A stretch of DNA of 64,000 bases from an uncultured Verrucomicrobia subdivision 3 bacterium (lineage in GTDB: Bacteria > Verrucomicrobiota > Verrucomicrobiia > Limisphaerales > DASXHY01), in NCBI GenBank assembly GCA_937890005.1, contig CALBZA010000026.1:3841-67840 (forward strand). The letters run 5' to 3'. Below are positions 3,927 through 17,616 of this stretch, piece after piece. The position numbers and the translations under genes are program-made. The notes beneath the pieces were generated by a model. That model was not told where the DNA came from. It was given only the letters and a program-made list of their open reading frames with translations, and did no database searches. How positions within the stretch are numbered: the first letter of the stretch is position 1; each line of letters starts with the position of its first letter.

Positions 3927-4561
3927 AAACTATCCTCATCATCGAAGATCAACCCGACATGCGGGAGAACATCGCCACCATTCTCGAAATGGAAAACTAC
4001 GCCGTGCTCACAGCCAATGACGGCGAACAGGGCCTCGCCATGGCGCGCGAGGAAAAGCCGGATCTGGTTCTTTGCGATGTGATGATGCCGAAGATGGATG
4101 GCCACGAAGTGCTCCGGCAGCTCCGGGAGGATCGCACGATAGCGGGGACGCCGTTCATTTTCCTGACGGCGAAGGGTGAGCGTCGCGATCAGCGCGCTGG
4201 AATGAATCTCGGCGCCGATGATTACCTGACAAAACCGGTGACAGCCACGGATCTGCTTGCGGCTGTTTCCGCAAGACTGGATCGCGAGCAGAAGCGACCG
4301 GCGGGCGAATTTCATCCTGACTTCAGCTCCCCCGCTCCGCTCGAGCGGACGTTGAATCTCACACCGCGCGAAGCGGAAGTGCTGCTCTGGGTGGCACAGG
4401 GCAAGAGCAATCCGGAAATCAGCGCGATCCTCGGCGCTGCAGAGAACACGATCAAAAAGCATCTCCAGAACATTTTCGAGAAGATGGGCGTGGACAATCG
4501 AAACGCCGCCAGTCTCCGGGCGATGGAGATTCTTTCCCAAACCGCTAAACTCAGCGCATGA
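3923..4561 (+). CDS. response regulator, NarL/LuxR family (REC + LuxR HTH)
   Basis: [16 protein letters not shown]...[13 protein letters not shown] forms the REC domain. The C-terminal [45 protein letters not shown] is a LuxR-type HTH. Its ATG overlaps the kinase stop (ATGA). Confidence 0.9.
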
Positions 4562-4698
4562 AATCGCTGACTGAACATCTCTGGTTCGAAACGCCCAATC
4601 GAAGGGATTACATCAACATCACCGACACCGTTGCGGCACTGGTTCGCAAGAGCGGCGTGCAGGAAGGCCTGTGTCTGGTGAACGCAATGCAAAACTAG
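4558..4698 (+). pseudogene. yjbQ: 5' fragment of a UPF0047/YjbQ-family gene, truncated by an insertion
   Basis: Encodes [44 protein letters not shown] followed by QN and a stop. The sequence continues seamlessly as [15 protein letters not shown]... at 15889. ATGA-coupled to the upstream response regulator. Confidence 0.8.
4682..4698. other. attL junction (host GAACGCA | ATGCA | element AAACTAG)
   Basis: Comparison with the attR junction at 15884-15900 shows a shared ATGCA. The arms differ immediately on either side. Confidence 0.65.
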
Positions 4699-4740
4699 CT
4701 ACTACCGGTTCACATTGCCGACTGGAGGGGATTTGCTGAT

Positions 4741-5016
4741 ATGAAGCCCGTGCTCAAAATTTCACTGTTCGGAGCAACGGCTCGCTGGAACACAATGCGC
4801 GGAAAGTGGATTTGCTCTGACAAAACGCTTCAGCGCCTGCTGAATCAAACAGTTCCAGATTTCAGCGTTCACACCCGATTCATGACAGACGGGGTCCAAG
4901 GAGAGGCAAAACGAGGGTTGATGAACTCGCCCTTGTGGGAGTCCGTAACCATTCTCAAGGAAGTTCCGGAAACCGCAGACAAACCTTCCGACGATCCCAA
5001 CGAACTCGACGGGTAA
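4741..5016 (+). CDS. hypothetical protein (first gene inside the element)
   Basis: 91-aa ORF with an ATG start. No recognisable motif. Confidence 0.4.
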   Translation: MKPVLKISLFGATARWNTMRGKWICSDKTLQRLLNQTVPDFSVHTRFMTDGVQGEAKRGLMNSPLWESVTILKEVPETADKPSDDPNELDG

Positions 5017-5083
5017 AATATCCTTGTCAGCGCGAACGTAAGAGTTCACAAGAGGTGCGGATTCAAATTGGGGAAAGGGAAAT

Positions 5084-5281
5084 ATGCCAAAGGAAACAGT
5101 TACGCGGAGCGCGACCATTCAAGTTGAGAAAAAGGAGATCACAGTCCAACTCGTTGAAAACCCTCGGGGAAGCTGTGTCCGATTCATTGAGAGCAATGCT
5201 GCCGGACGACGCAATTACCGGATGGTTCCGGCAAGTGGATTGTCGGAACTGACAAAAGTGCTTCAGCAGCTCTCAGCGTAG
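5084..5281 (+). CDS. PUR-alpha-like (DUF3276-like) single-repeat nucleic-acid-binding protein
   Basis: 65 aa. The segment IQVEKKEITVQLVENPRGSCVRFIESNAAGRRNYRMVPASGLSELTKVL matches the PUR repeat pattern (...f.fdlkeNpRG.flrI.E.....r..i.iP..gl.ef...l). A GGGAAAGGGAAAT SD-like stretch lies upstream. Confidence 0.5.
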   Translation: MPKETVTRSATIQVEKKEITVQLVENPRGSCVRFIESNAAGRRNYRMVPASGLSELTKVLQQLSA

Positions 5282-5318
5282 CATCACAAACGAGATTCCT
5301 CGTTTTCACATCTATCAC

Positions 5319-5366
5319 AAGGGTAGGCACCCGCGCCTTGCCCTTCCGTTCGCCCTGCCTACCCTT
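5319..5366 (+). terminator. strong hairpin after the PUR-like gene (11-bp stem AAGGGTAGGCA/TGCCTACCCTT, 26-nt loop, then TTTG)
   Basis: The inverted repeat was read directly from the sequence. The long C-rich loop is atypical for an intrinsic terminator. Confidence 0.4.
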
Positions 5367-5502
5367 TTGAATAAGTAGCGGCGCAAGTGTGCGGGAAGCC
5401 TGTTGCAGGATTACACGCTGCCGTTTGCGGGGGATACACATCACAAGGAGTTGATCCGGCGCTAACCGGAAAAAACATATTGCTGTTTCCTCCAAGATTC
5501 CT

Positions 5503-5751
5503 TTGAATCGGCCCGGTAGGAAAGGACGCGAATTGATCCAAGACGCAAAACGAAAACGGCTCGCAAAGGAGTGGCTAATCTTCATTGTGTCAGTTCTTCC
5601 CGGCACCCTGTTTGTCATCGTCGCAGCCATAGCTGAAGACGGCGCGCCGTTCTGGGCATGGACCTTAATTCCGTTTGGGCCTTACGCCCTGATCATGATT
5701 CTTCGCTCAATTGTCTGGTCTGTGAAAGTTCTGCGGTCGCGACAACAATGA
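5503..5751 (+). CDS. small membrane protein (2 predicted TM helices)
   Basis: WLIFIVSVLPGTLFVIVAAIA and WTLIPFGPYALIMILRSIVW are hydrophobic spans. The start is uncertain: TTG at 5503 or the in-frame TTG at 5533. Its stop overlaps the next ATG (ATGA). Confidence 0.45.
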   Translation: MNRPGRKGRELIQDAKRKRLAKEWLIFIVSVLPGTLFVIVAAIAEDGAPFWAWTLIPFGPYALIMILRSIVWSVKVLRSRQQ

Positions 5752-6320
5752 AGAAAGTTAAAATTCAAGATGATGCGGGACTTGCGTACTGCGTTGAGCA
5801 TGCAAGCGCCTTGATACAAGCAATTCACGATTACGCGGGACGTGATTTCACGAAGAAGTGGAAGCTTCGTTTTCCGCGGGGTTATGTTCGAACAGCACAA
5901 GAACAAAGACAACGGTTATCGTTTATTCCAGATGGCCCTTTGAAAGACAACATTGCTTATACGCTGATTCTTGCTGATACGACTCACTGGCTTCTGTGCA
6001 GAACTGATGTCACCCACACAATACAGGAACAGCTTATCAAACTTCACCTATTTCTCCTTGGCGCACTGGTTGAAAGCATTACGAAAGTCTATTTGTCTGG
6101 CAAATGTGGGAAGAGCTATAAAATCCGAACGGAATATCTAGTCACTCACCACCACATCACTCCCAAATTGAAAATCGATTTGGACTGGCTCTGGGATATG
6201 CGGAACAACATGCATTTGTTCCTCGTGCCCAATTCGGAGTATAGCTGTCCCGATTACACGGTCGCCAACTATAGTCGCGGAGTGGCGGCATTTCGTGAGC
6301 TAGTCAATGGGCTAGCCTGA
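5748..6320 (+). CDS. hypothetical 190-aa protein, AT-richer, translationally coupled to the membrane protein
   Basis: MKKVKIQDDAGLAYCVEH..., with ATG at 5748 inside track ORF 5658..6320. Contains DMRNNMHLF, which is HEPN-like but one residue short of Rx4-6H. Confidence 0.6.
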   Translation: MKKVKIQDDAGLAYCVEHASALIQAIHDYAGRDFTKKWKLRFPRGYVRTAQEQRQRLSFIPDGPLKDNIAYTLILADTTHWLLCRTDVTHTIQEQLIKLHLFLLGALVESITKVYLSGKCGKSYKIRTEYLVTHHHITPKLKIDLDWLWDMRNNMHLFLVPNSEYSCPDYTVANYSRGVAAFRELVNGLA

Positions 6321-6680
6321 GCATTCCATTTCCAAGCTGCGAAAGCGCTTCGGAAAAGGGTTCGCCCGACGTTCACAACTACAACATTCCTTGAGCTGCC
6401 TGGGCTAAAACACGCGTTTGTCTGCGCGGATCGGCCGTTCTAGCGTTTTCCCATTGGAAGTGCAGAGACTCGACTTGCACTAACAAACACACCGAACACA
6501 AGTGCTGCGTCACGGTCGTCCGCCTCCTCCTTGCCGCATTTTTCTGCCGCAGCTAGATAATGTCTGAAAGCGGGCAGCGGGCCTGATCCCCCGTTGAAGA
6601 TTCCCGGCTGGCGGTGGTTGTGTTTTTCATTATTGCCGCTTCTGCCGCTGGCCGGAATCGCTCGCGAACAAAATAATGAA

Positions 6681-7694
6681 ATGAACTACACGATTGAGCG
6701 GGACGAATCCGATTACCTCGACAGACAGTATGAGCTGGGGGCCCAAAAATTGGAGGACGAAGAAGCAGACACACGCTGCAGGTTCCAAGAAGTTGCCGTT
6801 TTCGATCCGAGCGAGGTTTCCAAGGCACTGCTGGAAAGCGAATGGGCTGACCTGCAAGGTCGTGAATCGGACGGAAGCCTTGAACAGCCCTCAAAAATAT
6901 CTAGCCCCTACATCAACGCGCCGCTGCCCCTCTTGGGAATCATGCACGGCGAGGACGTTCACCGCAGGAAAGCGTTTGAAAGGGAAGACCCACGTGATCG
7001 CAAAGCCTTCTGCAACTTCTTTCGTAGCTATGCGATTTGTTACTATGCACAGAACTTGTATCGCAAAACAGCAAAGGATGAAATGAACGGTCTGCGCTAT
7101 CCCGAGAAGACACCAACCGGCTTTAACAGGAACAATCCAAGGCATCGAGCGCTGGGCGCTGCGATGTTCGCGATGAATCGCGGCGGCGGCAGTGTTAAGC
7201 GAATCTTCGGACATTGGAACACGGCACGAGAATTCATGAAGGAGCGTCAGCTTGCCGAATGTGAGCAGGCACGTTTTCAGATTTCATTGAAGCTGCTTGG
7301 GCCGGAATACGATTTTTTGAGCCTGCGCGATCTTCGTGTGCTGATGGCTGTAAACTCGTGCATGGGTGAGGACGGATTCGGCACGATAAGCTGGCGGGTT
7401 CTATCGTGGCGCGCCGTGGGTGCAACGAACGAAGCGGGGCTAGAGTTGCTGGGCGTTAAGCCGCTTGGAAAGCATCAAGTGGAGAATGCCCTTGAGCGGC
7501 TGCAAAAGCATGGACTGATCCACCGCTTGGAAGTCAGGAAAGGGGTGGACAGTCGTGTTACCTTCGTTGCAAAAGGCACCATGTCGGAAAACGTGTTTCA
7601 CACGCTCGTTGCCGACAGAGTCTCCAAGGGCAAAGCTCGGCGTGGCGTGCTTCGGAATGGCAAACTCATTGTTCTTGGACGACTGGCGGAGTGA
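6681..7694 (+). CDS. hypothetical protein with a C-terminal winged-helix-like segment (candidate replication/regulatory protein)
   Basis: The track ORF 6594..7694 starts at a TTG; the first ATG is at 6681 (MNYTIERD...). The C-terminal LSLRDLRVLMAV...GKHQVENALERLQKHGLIHRLEVRKG looks like a wHTH. Confidence 0.5.
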   Translation: MNYTIERDESDYLDRQYELGAQKLEDEEADTRCRFQEVAVFDPSEVSKALLESEWADLQGRESDGSLEQPSKISSPYINAPLPLLGIMHGEDVHRRKAFEREDPRDRKAFCNFFRSYAICYYAQNLYRKTAKDEMNGLRYPEKTPTGFNRNNPRHRALGAAMFAMNRGGGSVKRIFGHWNTAREFMKERQLAECEQARFQISLKLLGPEYDFLSLRDLRVLMAVNSCMGEDGFGTISWRVLSWRAVGATNEAGLELLGVKPLGKHQVENALERLQKHGLIHRLEVRKGVDSRVTFVAKGTMSENVFHTLVADRVSKGKARRGVLRNGKLIVLGRLAE

Positions 7695-7720
7695 GGAACA
7701 TCCAACGCCCTGTTTCACGT

Positions 7721-7752
7721 GGTGCCTACCTGCGGTGCCTACCTGCGGTGCC
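7721..7752. repeat. 13-bp tandem repeat GGTGCCTACCTGC x2.5
   Basis: Read directly from the sequence. Lies in the intergenic region after the wHTH gene. Confidence 0.85.
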
Positions 7753-7756
7753 ATAT

Positions 7757-7780
7757 AATAAAAGCTTCAATAAAAGCTTC
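7757..7780. repeat. 12-bp tandem repeat AATAAAAGCTTC x2
   Basis: Read directly from the sequence. AT-rich, and adjacent to the 13-bp repeats. Confidence 0.85.
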
Positions 7781-7784
7781 CATA

Positions 7785-7815
7785 GCGCCCGCCGCTTTTT
7801 TGGCGGCGCGGGCGC
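7785..7815. other. GC-rich imperfect hairpin (GCGCCCGCCGC-T6G-GCGGCGCGGGCGC)
   Basis: Inverted repeat with a 2-nt bulge; the T-run sits in the loop. Confidence 0.5.
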
Positions 7816-7885
7816 TGTATGCGAAGAAGGAGAGAGAGATGTGTGTTTCCTCAGAAAAGCAGAAAACGCCAATTTGCTTAGGTGA

Positions 7886-8929
7886 ATGGAACGGAAGGAG
7901 GGAGAAGAACGAAAACACCAAATGAAAAATCTCCTTGCAGCCAAAACCAGAAAGAGCAAATTCCGCCTCATGACAAAGGAGAAAGCCAATTTGCAGCCAA
8001 ATGGAGAAGATGCTTCGTCTGAAGATGTGTTGCTTCCCACTCCCGAAGAACAACTGCAACGTCAGGAGCGCGAAAAGCGCGATGCGTTTGTGAGGCAGAT
8101 TGAGGGCTTTTTAGAGAATGATCCCGAGTTGCGTTCAATCGTGTTCCACCGGATTAAGGAAAATGCCCGTAAAAGGATTGAAACCCTCCGTAAAGGGGAA
8201 GCGATTGAAGAGATTCTCCAGATGCAAAAGCGCGAAAAGGACAACGCTAACGCGTTAGCGGTGCTTTCTCAAAGAATTCGGACAGGGACGCTCCAGGAAA
8301 AAACAAAAGCCCTCCAATCGCTCGTGGGCGAGATTGCGGACCGACAACAGAACATCGACAAAAACGAACGTGCCGCGGCGAACTCTATGAACTTGGCCGT
8401 GACGTATGCCAAAGAAATTGGAGACAGATTGCAGTTCGCAAAGGATCATTTGATTCCCGAAGGACAATACGAAAAGTGGGTTGAAGAGACATTTGACGGC
8501 ATTTTCAAACCTTCCACCGCTCGCCTCTATCGACAAATCGCCGCACCTCAGAATTGGAAAAAGATCGCAAAAAAGGTCAACACACCCCCGGGGTTGAGCC
8601 TGCGAGCGGCCCGCGCACTTCTCACGGACAAACCCGAAAAGCAGAGCAAATCCGAAATAGAAAAGACGCGCGCAAAGTTGGAAAAGAAAGCTTTGGAAAA
8701 GTTCCGCGAACTCATAGCTGGATGGCCCCCAAAGATGCTCGATGAAGTGACATTCTCCAACGCATGGTTTTGGGGAAGGCTCGACAAGGAGGCGCAAAAG
8801 CTCTGCAACCCCAGCGAAATGGCGAGGGAGTCGGCGAGGAACTTCCGTCGGTTGCTCAATGCTCAACGCCAAATGTTGAACGCCGGACAGTTTTCGCCAG
8901 CGGACCTATTGGAATCCGATTTTCATTAA
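7886..8929 (+). CDS. DUF3102-like coiled-coil protein
   Basis: 347 aa and K/E-rich. KDHLIPEGQYEKWVEETFDGIFKPSTARLYRQIA resembles the DUF3102 core (HGeW..Wle..f..s.rtA..ym). An alternative start is at 7922. Confidence 0.5.
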   Translation: MERKEGEERKHQMKNLLAAKTRKSKFRLMTKEKANLQPNGEDASSEDVLLPTPEEQLQRQEREKRDAFVRQIEGFLENDPELRSIVFHRIKENARKRIETLRKGEAIEEILQMQKREKDNANALAVLSQRIRTGTLQEKTKALQSLVGEIADRQQNIDKNERAAANSMNLAVTYAKEIGDRLQFAKDHLIPEGQYEKWVEETFDGIFKPSTARLYRQIAAPQNWKKIAKKVNTPPGLSLRAARALLTDKPEKQSKSEIEKTRAKLEKKALEKFRELIAGWPPKMLDEVTFSNAWFWGRLDKEAQKLCNPSEMARESARNFRRLLNAQRQMLNAGQFSPADLLESDFH

Positions 8930-8934
8930 ATACC

Positions 8935-9699
8935 ATGAGTTCAGAATCGAAGCCCACGGACCTACTCGGTCTCGCCCCTTACGGTGAAGCAGTAAAGTCT
9001 GCCACCGACAAGACTTTCGAAACGGCTCAGGCATTTCTCTACGCTTTGTGTCGCCCCGCAGCTGAAGAAGCGGGCTTGCTTTTCCGGGACCAGATACGCT
9101 TTTGGAGAGCGAAGAACCTAGCTCGGATCGCTGAGAAGGCTCAGGCATTCACAACTGTCACGCCTGAAGGTCTGCAATTGCAGGCTCCGCCAAGAGTTGT
9201 TCACGAGATCATCGAGCACGGTTCATGGTGCGAGCAGGAGGAGCTCCAAAGCATGTGGGCTGGACTCTTGGCCAGCTCCTGCACCAAAGATGGCGTAGAT
9301 GATTCGAGCTTACCATTCATAGACATATTAAAACGCATTACGTCAGCGGAGGCTAAACTTATAGAACATGTCTGCAAAAACTCGATCGTGGATGCCAGTC
9401 CTTCGGGTGTGCTTCGAGGCAGGTCTGTAGATTTATCCCTTGAGCAGATTCAGGCGATTACTGGATGGAAGGACAAGACTCTCGCGCAGGCTTGTATCGA
9501 ACACCTAGTTTCCCTCGGGTTGTTGAAGGAGCAACCTGCCATTTTCTTCAACGGAACACCGAAAGTTCCCTGGATTCAACCAGAACCGTTGACTCTCCAT
9601 TTCTATGTCCGTTGCTGTGGTTCCAGAATAGCCACAAAACAGTTTTTTGACGAACTAGCAAGTAAGACCGGAAAGACCGCTTTTTCGGAGGCGGAGTGA
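8935..9699 (+). CDS. Abi-alpha family (DUF4393/PF14337-like) protein
   Basis: The ATG at 8935 lies within track ORF 8764..9699. Matching segments are MSSESKPTDLLGLAPYGEAVKSATDKT..., AEEAGLLFRDQIRFWRAKNLARIAEKA, and EELQSMWAGLLASS...FIDILKRITSAEAKLIEHV. Together they fit the family pattern as I recall it. Confidence 0.6.
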   Translation: MSSESKPTDLLGLAPYGEAVKSATDKTFETAQAFLYALCRPAAEEAGLLFRDQIRFWRAKNLARIAEKAQAFTTVTPEGLQLQAPPRVVHEIIEHGSWCEQEELQSMWAGLLASSCTKDGVDDSSLPFIDILKRITSAEAKLIEHVCKNSIVDASPSGVLRGRSVDLSLEQIQAITGWKDKTLAQACIEHLVSLGLLKEQPAIFFNGTPKVPWIQPEPLTLHFYVRCCGSRIATKQFFDELASKTGKTAFSEAE

Positions 9700-9705
9700 G
9701 TAGTC

Positions 9706-9873
9706 ATGGCAGAGAAGAATTACATTACGTATCGCAAACACCTCGAATATTGTGCGCTAATATCTGCGTTTGGAACAAACAGTTCAGCCTCCCTGATGCA
9801 AACGCGTGTCGCGCGGGAAAACGTGCAGGAAGGGCGGGCAAAGGGGTACTGCAGGGCGGAAAACAAGCATTGA
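9706..9873 (+). CDS. possible 55-aa ORF downstream of Abi-alpha (below the track cut-off)
   Basis: My own translation gives MAEKNYITYRKHLEYCALISAFGTNSSASLMQTRVARENVQEGRAKGYCRAENKH. No motif found, so coding status is uncertain. Confidence 0.2.
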   Translation: MAEKNYITYRKHLEYCALISAFGTNSSASLMQTRVARENVQEGRAKGYCRAENKH

Positions 9874-9923
9874 TCACACGTTAAGGACTACGTGTAGGAG
9901 GCATCTGGCTGGATTAGATTTTA

Positions 9924-9947
9924 GATGCGTTTTTGGATGCGTTTTTG
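9924..9947. repeat. 12-bp tandem repeat GATGCGTTTTTG x2 upstream of the small serine recombinase
   Basis: Read directly from the sequence. Confidence 0.85.
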
Positions 9948-10062
9948 GAACACCCTGAACACGCTCCCCTTTGGTCTCTACAGAACACCTCACGGCAGCA
10001 GGACAAAACGACCGTTTACTTCACGACTGCCTGCCAGATACTCACTCTCGTAAAATGCGAGC

Positions 10063-10731
10063 ATGAAACATTGCGTCGCGTATTTCAGAGTATCAACAAA
10101 GCAGCAGGGAATGGACGGCCTCGGAATGGAGGCACAGCGAACAGCGGTCGCACAGTTCCTAGCATCACGGAACCTCCACTTGCTTGCGGAGTTCGCAGAG
10201 GTGGAAACAGGGAAGCGGAAGGATCGTCCAGAACTCACAAAAGCAATCGCACTGTGCAGGAAAGCAAAGGCAACGCTTGTGATCGCAAAGCTGGACCGGC
10301 TGGCACGCAATGCAGCGTTCGTGCTGAATCTCCGGGATTCCGGCGTGGACTTTGTTGCGTGCGACATGCCGGACGCAAACAAGCTCACAATCGGCATCAT
10401 GGCACTAGTGGCGGAACAGGAGCGGGATTGGATCAGCGAACGCACAAAGGCAGGACTGGCAGCGGCAAAGCGCAGGGGCACCCAGCTTGGCAATCCCCGC
10501 ATCGCAACAGCTCGCACGCTAGCAATCGCTGCAACGAAGGAGAAAACACGGGCATTCACCGACAGGCTTGCGCCGGTGATCGCAGAGATTACGGCTGCGG
10601 GTGTTACGACTCTCAAAGGAATCGCACAGTGCCTCAATGCGCGTGGATTCAAAACACCACAGGGCGCAGCATTCACAAGGCAAGCGGTTGCGAAGCAGAT
10701 GAGACGACTTCGCAAAGAACGTCAGGCATAG
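10063..10731 (+). CDS. small serine recombinase (resolvase/invertase type)
   Basis: The N-terminus MKHCVAYFRVSTKQQGMDGLGMEAQR contains the catalytic Ser motif. Also has LVIAKLDRLARN and ERDWISERTKAGL. Confidence 0.9.
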   Translation: MKHCVAYFRVSTKQQGMDGLGMEAQRTAVAQFLASRNLHLLAEFAEVETGKRKDRPELTKAIALCRKAKATLVIAKLDRLARNAAFVLNLRDSGVDFVACDMPDANKLTIGIMALVAEQERDWISERTKAGLAAAKRRGTQLGNPRIATARTLAIAATKEKTRAFTDRLAPVIAEITAAGVTTLKGIAQCLNARGFKTPQGAAFTRQAVAKQMRRLRKERQA

Positions 10732-10779
10732 CTTCTAAACCAGTTGCCGCCACTCGTTCGTCTCGCGCATTGTCGCAAC

Positions 10780-11202
10780 ATGGACGAGACGGCGGAAGAG
10801 ACGCAGGACAGGGCCGACATTCGGAAACAGGGACGCAGGGCGCAGAAGCGCAAGAACATCACACTCTCCAAGCAGTTTTCTCCCCGATTCTGGGAACAGT
10901 CCGATTCTCGCGTTGCGGTGGTCCGCGCAATTCGCCGCCGGTATGAACTTTTGAAGCAGCACGCAGGCGGCGAAGAATCCTATCAGCGCGATCTACTCTG
11001 CCAGCGCACTGCTTTCATTTCCGTGATCCTCGAAACGCAGGAGGTTGAGGCGGCTGAGGGTGGCTCACTGGACATGAGCGTCTATGTGCAGGCCATTAAC
11101 TGTTTATCGGGCCTGCTCCGCTCCTTGGGGCTGGAACGCCGGATCAGGAACGTGACAGACCTCAGCGCCTACCTTGAGAAGAAACGGAGCGCAGCGCAGT
11201 GA
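10780..11202 (+). CDS. putative terminase small subunit (assigned by position only)
   Basis: ~140-aa basic protein immediately upstream of TerL and overlapping its start. No diagnostic motif. Confidence 0.35.
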   Translation: MDETAEETQDRADIRKQGRRAQKRKNITLSKQFSPRFWEQSDSRVAVVRAIRRRYELLKQHAGGEESYQRDLLCQRTAFISVILETQEVEAAEGGSLDMSVYVQAINCLSGLLRSLGLERRIRNVTDLSAYLEKKRSAAQ

Positions 11203-12698
11203 ACATCCTCGATGCAATCAGAGACGAGAACTTGTTCCGGCCGTTTCTCGGTGATGATTTGAGCACGTGGAAGTATTGGGGAATTGCATTGCGTGCGCTT
11301 TACGGGATCCCAATCAAATCACTTAAAGGACGAGCCTTCGTGCAGCAATGCACAGGCAGGGATGCCAGTGAGCTTCCAGCAGAAGGATTTCAATCCGCGC
11401 TGTTCCTCGTAGGCAGACGGAGTGGCAAATCTCGTATCGCGGCAGTGATCGGCGGTTTTGAAGCGCTGTTCGGTGGACATGAGAAGCGGCTTGCGAAGGG
11501 TGAAACCGGAATCATCCCTATCATCAGCCCTTCAAAATTCCAGAGCGGAATCGTTTGGAAATACATCCGCGGTCTTTTTGATGTTCCACTGCTGAAACAG
11601 GAAGTGGTCAACGAATCCGAGCGTGATCAAACGATTACGCTTCAGAACGGAATCGAAATCCGAATTCTCACAGGCGATTGGCGCACTGTGCGCGGGCCGT
11701 CGGTCGTTTGCGCAATTATCGACGAGGTATGTTTTTTCGGTGTCACAGAAGAATCGAAGGTGCGCAGCGACACTGAACTGGTTCGCGCTTTGCGCCCGGC
11801 ATTGCTGACGACGAAGGGGAAGTTGATTGGCATTTCCTCGAAATATGCGCAGAAGGGGTGGGCCTATGGCACTTGGAAGAAGCAGCACGGAGCGAACAAG
11901 GGAGATGCGCAGTTCAATCCGAAATGGCGCACACTCGTTTGGGACACCGATTCCCGGACGATGAATCCCACGCTGTCGGAAGCAGAGATCGCAGCGGCAT
12001 ACGAAGAAGACCCAGCGGCAGCTCGAAGTGAATTCGGCGGCTGCTGGCGCGAAGACATTGAAGAATTTGTTCCCCGATCCATGATCGAATCGCTTGTTGC
12101 TGCAAACAGGCGAGAACTGCTTCCGCGTTCACTTTCGTATTCCGCAGGCGTGGATTTGAGCGGTGGACGCGGCGACAGCGCCGCATTGTGCATCGTTCAC
12201 AAGGAAGAGCGGCGAGTTGTGCAGGATTTCATAAAGGAGTGGCACGCACCCTTCAACCCGTATTCCGTAGTTTCGGAGATTGCGAGTGAGTTGAAGCGTT
12301 GGAATCTCCGTTCAGTGCGCGGGGACAACTACGCCGGCGACTGGCCTGTTCAGGCGTTTCGCGAACACGGAATACGTTACCTTCCAGCTGATCGCAGCAA
12401 ATCAGAACTCTATCGCGAAATGCTGCCTGTGTTGTGCGGCGGCAAAGCATCAATCGAACTGCTCGACAATGCCACACTGGTAAATCAGCTCGCATCGCTG
12501 GAGCGCAAAACACGCAGCGGGGGCAATGATGTGATTGACCACCCCCGAGGCGGAAAGGACGACGTTGCGAACGCCCTAGCTGTTGCGTGCAGTGCAGCAT
12601 CGCAAAAGCGGCTCCGAGCGGGTGGACTGTGGCGGATTGATCTGAACGCTTCCGAAGAATTTCCAAGCCGTCTTGCAATTCTCCAACAAACCCAATGA
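11199..12698 (+). CDS. terL: terminase large subunit
   Basis: Walker A-like VGRRSGKSRIAA and Walker B-like VCAIIDEVCFF. Nuclease-half motifs GVDLSGGRGDSAALCIVH and VIDHPRGGKDDVANALA. GTG start overlapping the upstream stop. Confidence 0.75.
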   Translation: MNILDAIRDENLFRPFLGDDLSTWKYWGIALRALYGIPIKSLKGRAFVQQCTGRDASELPAEGFQSALFLVGRRSGKSRIAAVIGGFEALFGGHEKRLAKGETGIIPIISPSKFQSGIVWKYIRGLFDVPLLKQEVVNESERDQTITLQNGIEIRILTGDWRTVRGPSVVCAIIDEVCFFGVTEESKVRSDTELVRALRPALLTTKGKLIGISSKYAQKGWAYGTWKKQHGANKGDAQFNPKWRTLVWDTDSRTMNPTLSEAEIAAAYEEDPAAARSEFGGCWREDIEEFVPRSMIESLVAANRRELLPRSLSYSAGVDLSGGRGDSAALCIVHKEERRVVQDFIKEWHAPFNPYSVVSEIASELKRWNLRSVRGDNYAGDWPVQAFREHGIRYLPADRSKSELYREMLPVLCGGKASIELLDNATLVNQLASLERKTRSGGNDVIDHPRGGKDDVANALAVACSAASQKRLRAGGLWRIDLNASEEFPSRLAILQQTQ

Positions 12699-12704
12699 AC
12701 GATT

Positions 12705-13175
12705 ATGAATGACAATCCTGTGATGATGAAGGTCCGAGCGTTCGAGGAACGGCACGGTTCCGAGAAGTATTCTGACGGCGCTGCGTGGTTTTACGCGGAC
12801 GGTGCGATGCGTGACATGAATCCGATCGGCATATTGATGGAGCCGCCTGACTCCGGCACCGACGAGGGGGAATACAAAATGGCCCTGCACAAACTCAAGT
12901 TCGCGCAGCTCAAACTCCAGACCGCCGTTTCGGAGTTCGACCAGCTGAACACGCGGCTGGCACACACGATTCCGATGGACCCGGATGCGGATTTGGCAGA
13001 GCTAAAGCGTCTCGCAAAAGTGGTAGAGAGCCGGAAGAAGCTTGTGACGGAGGCAGAGGAAGGCGTTGCTAATACCCGCTGGGGTCGCCGTCGAGCCGAA
13101 CTGAGGCGAGCAGACGAGGAACAGCGTCAGCGCATGGCTGACTTCAACGAGAAGCGCCGTTCCATCCGAGTGTAA
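12705..13175 (+). CDS. hypothetical coiled-coil protein
   Basis: 156-aa ORF, same strand, tightly packed after TerL. Confidence 0.5.
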   Translation: MNDNPVMMKVRAFEERHGSEKYSDGAAWFYADGAMRDMNPIGILMEPPDSGTDEGEYKMALHKLKFAQLKLQTAVSEFDQLNTRLAHTIPMDPDADLAELKRLAKVVESRKKLVTEAEEGVANTRWGRRRAELRRADEEQRQRMADFNEKRRSIRV

Positions 13176-13191
13176 CGCAATCAAATCACTT

Positions 13192-13485
13192 ATGAATACG
13201 ACTAGAGTTCAACTGCCGGACGGACGACTGCTCACCATCGAGGGTGGCACCGCAGAAACCACCGCAGCATTGCTGAGAAACCACTATCTCACGCCAGCTG
13301 CAACACAGGAACGTGAAGCCCTTGCGACTAACGAGGAACCAATGACGATGCCGAGCCTCCAAGATGCGCTTCAAAACCAGCAGCATCAACGCATTCGCAC
13401 CGTGGTGCAGAACCTTCCGCGTCCGGTTGTGAATGAAACAGACGAGCAACCGCTGGAAATGCCCCGGATGAAGTTCTCTGAGTGA
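13192..13485 (+). CDS. hypothetical protein
   Basis: 97-aa ORF with an ATG start. Confidence 0.45.
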   Translation: MNTTRVQLPDGRLLTIEGGTAETTAALLRNHYLTPAATQEREALATNEEPMTMPSLQDALQNQQHQRIRTVVQNLPRPVVNETDEQPLEMPRMKFSE

Positions 13486-13778
13486 TCTTCAGTTCCGGCG
13501 TCAATGCGATTGCCGTATTGCACGCCGTAGCTATTTTCAGAGTGCCAGCTTGTTTCTGTTTGGAGCTGGTGAGTTACCGACAGCCGTCCCTTTGACTTTC
13601 CACAATGGGACGGCGCTTTTTCCAGCTTCCTCCGTGTCCGTTTCTGCGTTCCGGCCCCAAATGCGCTGTCATGAGCGGGATCTTACTGCTTAGGTCCAAG
13701 GTGGGGCATTGGCAGGTCCAGGCAGGGTGTTTACACGTTGCCGGGGAACAGCGCACACAAGCGGAGGATTGTTCGCTG

Positions 13779-14258
13779 ATGTTCTTAAAAACCATCAATA
13801 CCGTTGCTCACGCGATGCTCATGGATGCACAAATGCCAGTGGTGCTTACAGGCACCGCAGACGGCAATGAAGCCCCTGCATCGAAGGTAAAGCAAATGAA
13901 CAAGAACACTGCGCCGAAGTTCCAAACCCCACACGAAAAAGCCAAATCAGCTCCGCGTCCCAAGCAGCCGGTGAAAGCAAGAGCGAAGAAGTCGGCGAAA
14001 TCCATCAAACCGCGGAAGGGCAAGTTGGGGCTGTTGCTCGGTCACTCGGTTGTCTCCGTGATCCGAGCAATGGGCAAGGCAGGCTGGACATACGAAACAG
14101 CCCGTGCTGCACTGGACAAGGCCGGGATTGAAGCTGCAACGCATACCGTGAAAGTTGGGCTGAAGCGGGGACGCGACGGACAGAAACGCATTGCGCCTCT
14201 CACGGAAAAACAGCTTCAGAGCCTCAAGGTGAAACCGACAACAGCACAGAAGCAATGA
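13779..14258 (+). CDS. lysine-rich basic protein, ATGA-coupled to the large serine recombinase
   Basis: The ATG at 13779 is preceded by GGAGGA. Contains a K-rich tract KAKSAPRPKQPVKARAKKSAKSIKPRKGK. Its stop overlaps the integrase ATG. The track ORF begins earlier, at 13605. Confidence 0.45.
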   Translation: MFLKTINTVAHAMLMDAQMPVVLTGTADGNEAPASKVKQMNKNTAPKFQTPHEKAKSAPRPKQPVKARAKKSAKSIKPRKGKLGLLLGHSVVSVIRAMGKAGWTYETARAALDKAGIEAATHTVKVGLKRGRDGQKRIAPLTEKQLQSLKVKPTTAQKQ

Positions 14259-15937
14259 GCAGGGGAAAACAGAAAATACTCCGTTTCGCCGCGCTGCGCC
14301 GTGTCTCTACGGAGCAGCAAGAGAAGGTTGGTGAATCGCTCCAGACACAGACAAAGGACATCGCATCAACTGTGAAAGACTTGGGTGGTGTCGTTGTCGA
14401 GTGGTATGGAGGGCAGGAACACGCAACACCGGGCCACGAGAAGCGGGAAGTCGAGCGATTGCTCCACGATGCACAGCGAAACCGGTTTGATGCCTTGATC
14501 GTGGCGCATCCGGACAGGTGGAGCCGCGATAATTCTTCCAGCCGCGCAGGACTGGAACTGTTCCGCGAGCACGGCGTGAGGTTCTTTGCTGGTGCAACGG
14601 AATACGACCTGTTCAATCCGGATCACGAGCTGTTCCTCGGGATTTCAGCCGTCGTCGGACAATTCCAAGCGCGCCAGCAAATGCTCAAGTCGATGAAAAG
14701 CCGCATCGAACGGGCAAAGGGAGGAGTTCCCACAGGGGGACGCCTCCCGTTTGGACGTGTTTTCGTGCGCAGCAAGGATAGGCGAACGGGCCATTGGGAA
14801 ATTGATCCAGCGAAGCATGAGATGGTGAGGGACTGCGCCAAGCGTTATCTGAAGGGTGAATCGCTCGTTGATCTAGCTGCCGAATATAACGTGAATGCGT
14901 CGAACCTTTGGAAGGTGCTTACGAAGGTGAGCGGCTCCAAATGGAAAGTTGAATTCAGCTCCAAGGTGCTCAATCTGCACGAGATTGTAGAACTTGATGT
15001 GCCTCCTTTGCTAGACAAGGAGACAATCGAGGCAATTTGCAGCAAAGCAGAAGCAAATCGCACCTACACGCACGGGCATATCAAACATCGGTATCTGTTC
15101 TCCCGGATGATTTTTTGCGCTCATTGCGGCTATGCGATGATGGGACAGACGAACCAGAATACAAAGCGCTACTACAGACACGCGCACACTGAACGAGATC
15201 GCGTCTGCAACGGCGCACCAAGAAAGGGATGGATCCCGGCTGATGCGATTGAGGACAACGTGATGCGCCACCTGTTTGAAACCTTCGGCAATCCGGTCGC
15301 AGTGCAGCGAGCAATCGAGGAAGCGACTCCAAACAGCGACAGGATTCAGCAAGCGGTCAAACGCAAGGGGTTCGTGGAGCAGGAACTGGAGACGATTGAG
15401 AATTCCCGGCAGCGAATTCTCAGATTGATTGTGAAGGGGACGATTGAAGAAGCAAACGCAGAGACGGAGCTTAAGAAGCTCAAAAACCGCGAACAGAAGC
15501 TAACCGACGAGCGAACACGGCTCGAAGATGAGCTTGCGCATGTTCCATCGCGGGAAGTGCTAAAATCGGCCTCAAGGAAGATCGCCGGAAAGTTCCTTCA
15601 ATACACCAGTGCCAAAACTTGGGCAAAAACTCGGCAGGCGAACGAAGCGTTCGATGCGATGAGCTTTGAGGAGAAGCGTGCGCTCTGTGAATCTGTGTTC
15701 GCCGGAAAAACAACCGACGGACGGCGCACGGGCATCTCCATAGCGTGGGACAGCACTGGAAAGAAGTGGCGCTATCGAATCGAAGGATTGTTGATAGATG
15801 CAGAAGGCCCGATCAGTGAGGGCGCATTTGTTTTCGGGGCACCGCAGGGTCAGAAAGCTCTAGTGGGTAAATTTGCATCGCAAACGCCATGCACATCACG
15901 GCAAGCGTTTACATCAATGACGCCGAGGACGGATTAA
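14255..15937 (+). CDS. large serine recombinase (integrase)
   Basis: 560 aa. The resolvase domain has [11 protein letters not shown] and [13 protein letters not shown]. It is followed by a recombinase domain, a zinc-ribbon-like CAHCGYAM...C segment and a coiled coil. The last 14 codons read across attR into yjbQ DNA in another frame. Confidence 0.9.
15884..15900. other. attR junction (element AAACGCC | ATGCA | host CATCACG)
   Basis: See attL. The single a/c difference just left of ATGCA fits host versus element arms. Confidence 0.65.
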
Positions 15938-16179
15938 TTCACGATTACGACGTCTGGCTGGAGAAACTCGCGCCCCACGCGCCGACGTCGCAGTATCATC
16001 ACAATCGCACCGGCGAGGACAATGCCGACGCGCACATGAAACGCCAGATCATGGGACGGGAAGTCGTCGTCGCGATCACCAAAGGAAAGCTCGACCTCGG
16101 ACCCTGGGAACAGATCTTCTACGGCGAATTCGACGGCCGCCGCCGAAAACGTGTTCTCGTGAAAATCATTGGCGAATAG
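15889..16179 (+). pseudogene. yjbQ: yjbQ 3' portion, copy A (96-codon ORF beginning at the internal Met)
   Basis: [96 protein letters not shown] is a typical UPF0047 C-terminal core. Confidence 0.8.
15900..16178 (+). repeat. direct repeat copy A (279 bp, 3 mismatches versus 17337..17615)
   Basis: Base-by-base comparison at a constant offset of 1437 bp. The differences are at 15903, at 15930 (gac/gat), and at the stop third base (TAG/TAA), which lies just outside the repeat. Confidence 0.9.
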
Positions 16180-16242: not shown

Positions 16243-16304
16243 AGCGGGGTGGATCGCCGAATTGAATCTGAACAACCTCAACCTTTGAAAGCGAACGGTG
16301 CGCC

Positions 16305-17336
16305 ATGACACTCAAACAAATCTATAAAAAGACTTGCTCCGAATATTTTTCAATTCCAGATGAGGAAACAGAGTCTGCATTCGGCCAGCGCAAGCCGATA
16401 GGAGGAGATGTTCTGAACAGAAGCCCAGCCAAAGAAAAGTTCTACCAAGAGCATCTGCGCTACACGGAAATTGTGCCTTCTATCGAACACACAGAGATAG
16501 GTGAGGACGTCGTGTTGCGACGATTCATGGATTTGCCAAAATTCATCGACCTCATTGTCAATAAGCGACTGTTACTGCCGACTGTCAAAAAACTGCAAGA
16601 GGGAGACCCACATGAATGTGAGGCATCACCAGACTACAGCAGAATTTCAGATGATGCTTTGAAAAAAAGTATTTTGGATTTGGCAGAGGAATACGTCACA
16701 GAAGCAGACTTGAATTTATGGCGCCCGCTACAGTTTGACTTGCTTGTCCTTGGCCAACGCCAACCAGTCACCAAGAGCTCTGTGAGTGAAGTCCTAGACA
16801 AGATGTCTCAAGACGAGCTTAGGCAGGCTGCGTGGTGTGTTGAGCACAGGAGATTGCAAGATGAGCTTTGCTGCAATTGTTGGTATGATAGCGAACTGGA
16901 ATCCGATGCCATGTGGAGGCTCTATTGCGACCGTGTAGGAGTTTCCATCGCAACCACGGTAAAAACTTTGCAGAGATCGATTAAATGTGAAGTTCCAATG
17001 ATATTCAAAGACCGCATGAAACTGCATCTCGCAAAGGTGACCTACAGCGATGCTTCAACAGTTTCAGATGCCCCATCGTGGTTGATTAAGAGGTCCGCAT
17101 TCAGACATGAACATGAAGTTCGCTTTTTCATCGATTATCCATTCCCTCGAAACGAAGGTTTTGTACTAACAGTTGAACCTTTGACACTGATAGAGGAAAT
17201 GACGGTTTCTCCCTATGCACCGCGCTGGCAGGCTAACGCAATTGAAGCCATGGCCCGCCGAATTCTAGGAGACGGACTGAAAATCAAAGCATCAAAGCAT
17301 CGCAACTCACTGAAGCCGCCTTGGCCTCAACGTTAA
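16305..17336 (+). CDS. DUF2971-like protein
   Basis: 343 aa, AT-richer. Matching segments, in DUF2971 motif order, are [67 protein letters not shown] and [15 protein letters not shown]. Confidence 0.6.
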
Positions 17337-17615
17337 GGCGAGCGTTTACATCAATGACGCCGAGGATGGATTAATTCACGATTACGACGTCTGGCTGGAG
17401 AAACTCGCGCCCCACGCGCCGACGTCGCAGTATCATCACAATCGCACCGGCGAGGACAATGCCGACGCGCACATGAAACGCCAGATCATGGGACGGGAAG
17501 TCGTCGTCGCGATCACCAAAGGAAAGCTCGACCTCGGACCCTGGGAACAGATCTTCTACGGCGAATTCGACGGCCGCCGCCGAAAACGTGTTCTCGTGAA
17601 AATCATTGGCGAATA
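17337..17615 (+). repeat. direct repeat copy B
   Basis: See copy A. Confidence 0.9.
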
Positions 17616-17616
17616 A
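17341..17616 (+). pseudogene. yjbQ: yjbQ 3' portion, copy B (no start codon; probably the displaced native 3' end)
   Basis: Encodes the same peptide, [10 protein letters not shown]...KIIGE, ending in TAA. Track ORF 17371..17694(-) is its antisense shadow. Confidence 0.75.

Follow-up and report, generated by a model that had tools for sequence, protein, structure and literature searches.

The window analysed here, a stretch of 64,000 nt (positions 3,841 to 67,840) of contig CALBZA010000026.1 from the assembly GCA_937890005.1 of an uncultured Verrucomicrobia subdivision 3 bacterium, carries an 11.2-kb integrated element that encodes a terminase large subunit (TerL) together with two serine recombinases. 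Judged by its gene content and by that of its relatives, this element appears to be an intact member of a conserved family of integrative elements of about 10-13 kb that possess a complete terminase but no capsid, portal or tail genes. The explanation that on balance seems the probable one is that it is a helper-dependent phage satellite, which would package itself with its own terminase. This family of satellite-like integrative elements is apparently undescribed; no description was found in the literature searched of a TerL without head genes or of this gene combination, nor of a satellite in Planctomycetota or Verrucomicrobiota. The open reading frames (ORFs) are from our own calls, which agree with those made independently for this element in two other assemblies, and the coordinates of all features are collected in the table below.

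The element interrupts the host gene yjbQ (UPF0047), and an ATGCA core is common to both junctions. Counted with a single copy of this core, the insert measures 11,202 bp, so that the limits given in the original prediction (4692-15891) were essentially exact; its description of intact attachment (att) junctions and of an intact integrase also held, with ATGCA at both ends and a large serine recombinase of 560 amino acids (aa). Joining the flanks in silico gives back an uninterrupted yjbQ ORF. The features that define a large-serine-recombinase element were found, namely Resolvase and zinc-ribbon domains, a precise insertion and a short core in place of long repeats. Seven related loci (L002, L008, L035, L036, L038, L040 and L063) have an insertion in the same short stretch of yjbQ, at the end of ...LVNAM, the core being directly readable at the side of the 3' fragment in five of them, and the same N-terminal fragment of yjbQ was found by tblastn to adjoin related elements. 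The start of the 5' fragment overlaps the stop codon of the preceding gene, which codes for a LuxR-type response regulator. The G+C content is 0.49-0.57 in the element and 0.58-0.61 in the flanks, no tRNA gene was found within the window, and the yjbQ gene of the window is 76-80% identical to that of metagenome-assembled genomes (MAGs) of Opitutaceae. This similarity, and the names borne by TerL homologues (Verrucomicrobiia, Limisphaerales), point to a host of the Planctomycetota-Verrucomicrobiota-Chlamydiota (PVC) type.

The reading of the 499-aa protein as a TerL with ATPase and nuclease motifs was borne out. No Pfam family matched it at E<=0.01 and a profile search of the PDB with it gave nothing interpretable; over residues 64-471 it matches the terminase-large-subunit families of PHROGs (phrog_2, 1e-16; phrog_9, 6e-12; phrog_7579, 4e-6). 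In alignments of 14-18 sequences that are 35-69% identical to the protein of the window, the Walker A motif GRRSGKS (residues 72-78) and the Walker B residues D175/E176 are invariant or nearly so across the homologues, and the acidic residues of the nuclease (D319, D326, D376, D454/D455) are invariant. The protein is a real terminase large subunit, with a predicted ATPase and RNase-H-like nuclease. TerL is under strong purifying selection, with a dN/dS of 0.067 between two copies of one genome (97% amino-acid identity) and of 0.06-0.15 for more distant pairs. Among 8,000 candidates scored, 772 were homologues at E<=1e-5, and the named ones came mostly from MAGs of Verrucomicrobiota and Planctomycetota. 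The best match among 50,697 deposited phage genomes, in Synechococcus phage S-CBS4, is 23% identical. A clade-specific pattern scan of IMG/VR found no member of the TerL clade, and a broader TerL alignment led to 47 IMG/VR contigs at 22-40% identity, so that the absence from this viral database holds only for close relatives; the scans of IMG/VR and of genomes rest on peptide patterns.

A scan of one genome per species gave 80 terL loci, in which ORFs were called by a simple longest-ORF and clustering procedure, and onto which the proteins of the window were mapped. Hardly anything in the left arm of the element recurs in these loci; this arm is variable cargo, and a conserved right arm is common to the window and the related loci. 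This right arm comprises a small serine recombinase upstream of the e10-terL pair (20 loci, by tblastn), the gene e10 (73 loci), TerL (80 loci), the gene e12 directly 3' of terL (42 loci) and then a co-oriented large recombinase, homologues of which, 34-51% identical, are placed likewise in 17 loci. Both in the window and in 37 other loci, nearly all labelled Planctomycetota or Verrucomicrobiota, the large recombinase gene starts 0.8-3.1 kb downstream of terL, and the longest ORF in between has at most 333 aa in these 38 loci, save for one PolA-like replicase of 491 aa. Most of the 37 loci share the core order of a small serine recombinase, a terL-coupled gene of 125-150 aa, TerL, a coiled-coil protein of 155-170 aa and the recombinase. 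The elements that could be delimited measure 9.7-13.2 kb (by split yjbQ halves: L002, L008, L035, L040 and L063), and their sites are yjbQ, comM, a membrane-protein gene and a prophage capsid gene. Two of the closest relatives that were examined, with a TerL 66-68% identical, measure about 10-12 kb; one is found at a split comM-like Mg-chelatase gene and the other beside ychF. In a 9.9-Mb Verrucomicrobiia genome, an element with a TerL 68% identical to that of the window lies between the comM-like halves (L081:3525-4517 and L081:16305-17006), so that the comM-like gene is a second integration target of the family.

The gene e10 lies directly upstream of terL, in the position of a small terminase subunit (TerS), and its stop overlaps the terL start by 4 nt (GTGA) in the window; such an overlap (NTGA) was found in 43 of 71 loci, including the window. 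The earlier label of a TerS-like gene therefore stood as regards position and co-translation with terL, but not as regards likeness in sequence or fold. Indeed, e10 has no match in Pfam, PHROGs or NCBIfam, a profile search of the PDB with it gave nothing relevant, and its all-helical AlphaFold2 (AF2) model (pLDDT 83) had no Foldseek match in the PDB at E<=0.001 (best E 0.56). It is here called a putative small terminase or packaging-specificity subunit, a label given for its position and translational coupling only. As for e12, a set of 50%-identity cluster representatives contains 166 relatives, of which nearly all have about 147-170 aa, and because of this uniform length it is not a fragment of a larger protein. 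Its AF2 model (pLDDT 92) shows a small three-stranded beta domain and three long helices, without a Foldseek match in the PDB or in BFVD at E<=0.001, and has neither an HK97 nor a portal fold, which for e12 answers the concern that the small ORFs could be fragments of capsid or portal genes. e12 is possibly an assembly, scaffold-like or adaptor factor. Profile searches of the PDB with e12, and with the proteins c6 and c7 of related loci (see below), gave nothing interpretable.

As predicted, the element is devoid of recognisable head and tail genes: searches of Pfam, PHROGs and NCBIfam linked none of its ORFs to a family of capsid, portal, tail or lysis proteins, and the three ORFs between terL and the integrase gene are short (156, 97 and 217 aa, the last with 159 aa from an internal Met). 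The absence of capsid, portal and tail genes is a generic mark of a satellite. Several ORFs have no family match at all, which would also suit a complete, very small virus with a capsid and a portal too divergent to be recognised. Such a virus is highly improbable, as family-wide conservation is limited to the small recombinase, e10, TerL, e12 and the integrase, as e10 and e12 have 125-170 aa and confident helical models with neither an HK97 nor a portal fold, and as no conserved ORF is of portal size.

In a neighbour-joining tree, which is distance-based and crude, all TerLs of the e12 type, including that of the window, form one clade, apart from the phage-type relatives, and the lack of capsid genes seems to have been the original state of a deep lineage and not the result of repeated recent deletions. 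The gene order of the element (replication and regulation, TerS-position gene, TerL, integrase beside attR) would fit a prophage remnant, in which the genes for portal, capsid, tail and lysis were lost through one deletion between terL and int that spared the att sites and the integrase; moreover, related TerLs are found in full head modules of IMG/VR contigs. This origin is nevertheless scarcely credible and is effectively refuted by the compact layout in 37 other loci, by the purifying selection and by the single TerL clade: the same short interval between terL and the recombinase recurs in two phyla in which TerL is only about 50% identical, all TerLs of compact layout fall into one clade, the catalytic residues are intact, the e12 homologues are full-length small proteins, and near-identical copies at different sites point to current mobility. 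The homologous loci were not seen to be a larger prophage cut short to varying extents, with genes in decay; the architecture is uniformly compact, and terL is broken in only three of the 80 loci (L064, L069 and L075). The preference of the original prediction for a satellite over a remnant, for which homologous elements in related genomes had been named as the check, is thus upheld, because such conserved elements of about 11 kb exist (37 further loci, 9.7-13.2 kb where delimited) and no capsid or portal fragments were found by family searches or, for e12, in the model. Two further observations concern single genomes. Three intact copies of an element lie on one 7.8-Mb Planctomycetia contig (L013, L018 and L020), a case of amplification, and two of the broken terL genes (L069 and L075), from one Opitutales MAG, are both truncated at residue 302 and surrounded by transposase-like ORFs (cluster c34), a case of decay.

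Mobility was observed in a marine member of the family. The marine contigs L083-L086 contain the same 10.3-kb element (99.9% identity; approximately L083:472-10786) with a CTGG junction core and differing flanks, and this member has moved recently between sites. The first site lies inside a zinc-ribbon/membrane-protein gene and the second inside an SU10-family major capsid protein (MCP) gene; at the latter, the joined flanks read ...ADEMDYQ followed directly by KQERLRELL..., and precise excision would restore the prophage MCP ORF. L083 combines one flank of each site and is probably an assembly chimera. The interrupted MCP has more than 465 metagenome relatives at 62-69% identity, encoded in a cluster of portal (phrog_64), scaffold, MCP (phrog_1328) and tail-like genes, and in many of the JGI metagenome loci concerned (L090-L169) genes for a PfkB kinase and a nitroreductase stand just upstream of the portal gene. 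No terminase was seen near this structural cluster within 10 kb on each side, except in L093, where a TerL of another family is encoded 6 kb upstream of the portal.

The insertion in this MCP gene, with its many relatives, and the cellular-type genes upstream of the portal would agree with a split system, in which the capsids come from a resident, vertically inherited structural cluster on the same chromosome (a defective prophage or a cluster resembling a gene transfer agent) and the element gives packaging specificity. We regard this as improbable: the L093 locus has a TerL of its own, only 10 kb are visible on each side of such clusters, the other 88 terL loci and the window are not near a cluster of this kind, and no structural cluster is visible in the window. 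For the first two of these reasons, the more specific idea that the element makes up for a terminase missing from the structural cluster was not supported either.

Links to phage heads were found in other members of the family and in more distant relatives. In 12 loci, a protein of 165-280 aa (c7) is encoded between e12 and the recombinase and matches DUF2213 (1e-5), phrog_760 (down to 4e-20) and three to four PHROGs annotated as 'head maturation protease' (1e-6 to 8e-11). Some members of the family, the window element not being one of them, hence carry a single head-morphogenesis-type gene (DUF2213/prohead-protease-like). In addition, five IMG/VR contigs (L191, L195, L204, L205 and L217) are of phage type and encode a TerL 37-40% identical to that of the window over residues 70-465; they seem to be its nearest full-phage relatives. 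In these five contigs terL is followed by a gene for a portal-like protein (v12), and the longest ones continue in turn with a v7 protein, then with a 505-549-aa protein that has a c7-like domain (L195, L205), and then with the MCP. The protein with the c7-like domain is thus placed between the portal and MCP genes. In L205, the portal shares 37% identity with its counterpart in Halorubrum phage Hardycor1 (4e-78), and the MCP shares 40% identity with a Brevundimonas phage MCP (6e-65). These contigs suggest an origin of the family in such a head module through the loss of the portal and capsid genes. The search for the full phages closest to TerL, proposed earlier as a way to candidate helpers, therefore yielded head-module contigs at 37-40% identity, but deposited phages at 23% only, and no helper was identified.

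More remote cousins, with a TerL 35-41% identical, were found in Alphaproteobacteria, Acidobacteriota, Gemmatimonadota and Gammaproteobacteria. They encode, in this order, a tyrosine integrase, a PrimPol-D5-type primase or other replicase, e10 and TerL, and a few small genes, which looks like the plan seen in phage-inducible chromosomal islands (PICI) with a large terminase added. These cousins (at L045-L080, e.g. L058 and L060) include cultured strains of Mesorhizobium (M. tianshanense NBRC 102499, L058), Methylobacterium, Roseomonas (CCTCC AB2023176, L060) and Halospina (H. denitrificans DSM 15505, L073). In some of the cousins and of the IMG/VR relatives, larger genes are found downstream, such as one for a lytic transglycosylase-like protein or for a 'baseplate hub', and the sister clade therefore appears to be a mixture of small elements and phages.

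If the element is a satellite, the large serine recombinase would excise it from yjbQ and so restore the gene, and the variable left arm would provide replication functions and anti-phage cargo, the 366-aa ORF and the repeats at 7721-7784 being a candidate initiator and origin. The terL-coupled e10 would select the element's own DNA, which TerL would cut and pump into the procapsids of a co-resident or infecting tailed phage, with competition with the packaging of the helper as a likely side effect. e12, and in some members the prohead-protease-like c7, may adapt the assembly of the helper capsid, and the size of 11 kb would require either small capsids or the packaging of multimers by headful. 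Dependence on a helper, induction and packaging are what we infer of its behaviour.

Several points weigh against a satellite of this kind. e10 has no likeness in sequence or fold to solved TerS proteins, that of HK97 appearing at rank 34 (E 5.4) in the Foldseek search. TerL is at most 23% identical to deposited phages and at most 40% identical to the IMG/VR relatives; because of these low identities, the terminase does not appear to be a recent loan from a known phage, and its docking onto a foreign portal is an assumption. The window element is without the protease-like c7 gene. A helper phage was not identified, as outside the element the 64-kb window consists of housekeeping DNA, and no sign of excision, of a circular form or of packaging was found, the public reads having given only soil-metagenome Logan contigs at 2-4x depth that contain parts of the element (share of words <=0.09).

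Some of these points speak for the main rival explanation, according to which e10, TerL and e12 serve the element in another way (site-specific cutting, processing of replication products, resolution) or sabotage phage packaging, transfer taking another route. This role is favoured by the deep, element-specific TerL clade, always capsid-less among the e12 type and no more than 23% identical to the TerL of any deposited phage, and by the absence of a recognisable phage fold in e10 and e12; the defence-type cargo and the two or three serine recombinases per element would fit it as well. It is nonetheless judged unlikely, as neither the ATPase site nor the nuclease site varies, so that the whole motor and not the nuclease alone is under selection, as the coupling of e10 and terL is the classical TerS-TerL arrangement, as the prohead-protease-like gene kept by 12 members has no obvious use away from capsids, and as family searches of the ORFs of the window element found no conjugation or mobilisation gene.

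Table. Features of the integrated element and of its junctions with the host gene yjbQ (positions in the window)
Feature	Position	Strand	Basis or remark
yjbQ/UPF0047 5' fragment	4560..4691	+	44 codons, MKSL...LVNAM; sequence read
attL core ATGCA, left junction	4687..4691	.	direct sequence reading
91-aa ORF	4741..5016	+	no family match; also called in independent assembly
65-aa ORF	5084..5281	+	competes with minus-strand 148-aa ORF 5184-5630; PurA-like match below cut-off
220-aa ORF	5658..6320	+	variable cargo; no family match; no counterpart in 80 related loci
366-aa ORF (337 aa from later start)	6594..7694	+	no family or PDB match
two short tandem arrays, iteron-like	7721..7784	.	Tandem Repeats Finder
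347-aa ORF	7886..8929	+	cluster 16, 8 loci including window; only weak phrog_1733 match
Abi_alpha-family protein, 254 aa	8935..9699	+	Pfam Abi_alpha 1.6e-22; PADLOC PDC-S47 1.9e-11
small serine recombinase, 222 aa	10063..10731	+	Resolvase 1.1e-28 and HTH_62 7.6e-10 (Pfam); phrog_125 3e-34
e10, 152 aa (140 aa)	10744..11202	+	TerS position; stop overlaps terL start
TerL, 499 aa	11199..12698	+	PHROG terminase matches; catalytic motifs
e12, 156 aa	12705..13175	+	directly 3' of terL; family-specific protein
97-aa orphan ORF	13192..13485	+	no family match
217-aa ORF (159 aa from internal Met)	13605..14258	+	lysine-rich middle; no family match
large serine recombinase/integrase, 560 aa	14255..15937	+	Resolvase 2.3e-14, Zn_ribbon_recom 9e-10; phrog_95 2.4e-54
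attR core ATGCA, right junction	15889..15893	.	direct sequence reading
yjbQ 3' fragment	15889..16179	+	96 codons, MHITAS...; Pfam UPF0047 1.3e-28, profile positions 25-117

The genes of the element form a plus-strand series of ORFs of 91, (65, 82), 220, 366/337, 347, 254, 222, 152/140, 499, 156, 97, 217 and 560 aa. The co-orientation of all ORFs that had been described applies to this series, but at the left end the gene caller takes a minus-strand ORF of 148 aa (5184-5630) as the alternative to the small plus-strand ORFs. Of the functions first proposed for the left arm, a PUR-like protein has only a sub-threshold counterpart in the 65-aa ORF (Pfam PF04845, E 5e-4, with 20 bits where the cut-off is 25), and neither a DUF3102-like nor a winged helix-turn-helix protein was recovered by Pfam, PHROGs or NCBIfam. 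Iteron-like repeats are indeed present after the 366-aa ORF, in one array of 2.5 copies of a 13-bp unit (7721-7752) and another of 2.3 copies of a 12-bp unit (7757-7784), but these are short; for their position, the 366-aa ORF may be considered a candidate replication initiator. The 366- and 347-aa ORFs, when searched against the PDB, brought no interpretable match. The Abi-alpha protein and the two serine recombinases (222 and 560 aa) were recovered with clear family matches; the former is a candidate anti-phage cargo gene, and Abi_alpha/PDC-S47 is typical satellite cargo. The C-terminal part (about 70 aa) of the 217-aa ORF is common to small ORFs in three other loci (cluster 33), and a comparison with the protease-like c7 by hhalign was negative, so the two are unrelated. 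Scans of the element for Rfam families and for promoters and terminators gave nothing above chance.

A further repeat, with the 12-bp unit TTTTGGATGCGT x 2.6, is located at 9919-9949, in the 360-bp gap before the small serine recombinase gene, and could be a binding-site array or a piece of a pac or ori region. Among the related loci, 13 encode a protein of about 460 aa (c6; e.g. L030:4781-6163 and L083:760-2115), which belongs to phrog_4756, a family without assigned function. In L023 it is encoded after e12, downstream of terL, and was considered as a portal; this was rejected, since its motifs E-L-D-Y-S...R-M-L-Y-H, R..VK and I-H-D resemble motifs A, B and C of family-A DNA polymerases, which is our own reading without support from hidden Markov models. 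c6 is thus a candidate replicase, although unusually small for a PolA-type enzyme.

Several observations concern the insertion site. In the window, the integrase gene adjoins the 3' half of yjbQ and has the same direction as yjbQ, and in the seven other yjbQ loci it adjoins the 5' half and is antiparallel to yjbQ. The element-side sequence beside the 3' half is alike in all of these (...AACGC[C/G]ATGCA); because this end is similar despite the opposite orientation of the body, the interior of the element appears to have been inverted relative to attP in one of the lineages. The integrase ORF crosses attR, so that its last 16 codons are host yjbQ DNA while the element is integrated; after excision, these 16 residues would be replaced by about 19 others from the opposite end of the element. 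Three of the elements that disrupt yjbQ contain near one end a complete extra copy of this gene (L002:4782-5195, L035:6378-6797 and L040:2285-2704), which looks like a built-in replacement for the interrupted gene.

Downstream of the element, a second copy of the 3' part of yjbQ is present at 17338-17616, for which a repeat finder gave 286 nt at 98% identity (17330-17615 against 15893-16178); it has neither the ATGCACATCACG start nor the att core. It is preceded by a 1.15-kb segment with a single gene (16305-17336), which codes for a DUF2971 protein (phrog_34615) and was identified by PADLOC as the candidate defence gene PDC-S31 (4e-18). In metagenome contigs of related strains, position 16246 is joined directly to 17638, which suggests that the DUF2971 cassette and the duplicate yjbQ 3' part together are an insertion.

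Compared with known satellites, the element combines features of several types. PICI carry terS without other phage structural genes, and terL together with capsid, adaptor and connector genes marks the capsid-forming PICI (cf-PICI), according to the SatelliteFinder paper (PMC10085698), with which the earlier remark that a TerL without head genes is unusual for described satellites agrees. Like the window element, cf-PICI are integrative, similar in size (about 10-15 kb) and equipped with a terL of their own; with their terS and terL they package only themselves, terL being a defining core gene (PMC10085698). They differ in that they encode an MCP, a portal, a head-tail adaptor and a connector and steal only tails, whereas the window element has terL and no capsid, portal, adaptor or connector gene was found in it; the family described here also has serine recombinases, different replication genes and e12, and is found in the PVC clade. 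With classical PICI and SaPI, the element shares its size, an integrase at one end, central replication and cargo genes, packaging genes at the other end, defence cargo and the lack of structural genes, and PICI redirect packaging via a small-terminase-like protein. However, PICI carry terS (or rpp/ppi) and use the TerL of the helper, whereas the window element carries a full TerL. Moreover, PICI have an AlpA/Stl/MerR regulator and a primase-replicase next to the integrase, whereas Pfam, PHROGs and NCBIfam gave no domain of these kinds, AlpA or primase, for the window element; the cousins in Alphaproteobacteria and Acidobacteriota have a tyrosine integrase and a PrimPol-D5 primase. The P4-like genes psu/delta/sid and alpha primase had no PHROG or Pfam match, in generic searches and not with SatelliteFinder profiles.

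The PLEs of Vibrio cholerae resemble the element in their integration by a large serine recombinase and in the lack of capsid genes, and are the only reference satellites with a serine recombinase according to the VEIME paper (PMC9618062). They differ in that PLEs, according to one study (10.1101/2024.04.22.590561), have no terminase of their own and manipulate the packaging motor of ICP1; no sequence similarity was detected between the window element and PLEs. VEIMEs (virion-encapsidated integrative mobile elements) are likewise small integrative elements without capsid genes, of marine origin and seen in virus particles; in some of them there are genes for small terminases, for 'motor-like ATPases' and for serine proteases, as well as Abi-like genes (PMC9618062). 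As described, VEIMEs are unlike the window element in that their authors assume a large terminase of the helper and describe no core of a TerS-position gene, TerL and e12 (PMC9618062). The five IMG/VR phage contigs mentioned above differ by a complete head module, another TerS-position gene and the lack of e12. The elements phiRv1 and phiRv2 of Mycobacterium tuberculosis, of about 10 kb, have a large serine recombinase, a terminase and a prohead protease, and also a capsid protein and a primase. On the defining features tested, membership of the window element in PICI, cf-PICI, P4-like satellites or PLEs is rejected.

A wider proposal, which we put forward tentatively and hold to be somewhat doubtful, is that these elements represent an old multi-phylum lineage of capsid-less satellites, comprising the e12 clade, mostly of Planctomycetota and Verrucomicrobiota, and the cousins with tyrosine integrase and primase in Alphaproteobacteria, Acidobacteriota and Gammaproteobacteria. 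With a complete private terminase (a specificity subunit and TerL) and small assembly factors, they might parasitise the procapsids of unrelated helpers, a third strategy beside that of 'terS only' (PICI) and that of the 'whole head' (cf-PICI); some would be inserted in the capsid gene of the helper, their excision gating capsid production.

In summary, if the element is a satellite of the kind proposed, a satellite can keep the whole packaging motor and yet shed every structural gene, and a foreign TerL must work on the portal of the helper, which is a question of motor-portal specificity. Satellites would then also extend to Planctomycetota and Verrucomicrobiota. The genomic signature, an e10-terL-e12 core beside a recombinase with no portal or MCP gene, would be missed by current definitions of satellites, because terL is expected there only together with capsid genes (PMC10085698). 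Several carriers are cultured strains, among them Novipirellula sp. SH528 (L030), Rhodopirellula baltica BR-MGV (L014) and Alienimonas sp. DA493 (L032), which makes the elements experimentally accessible. With its defence-type cargo and its conserved target genes (yjbQ, comM and a capsid gene), this family probably shapes the phage-host dynamics of PVC bacteria in soils, sediments and marine habitats.

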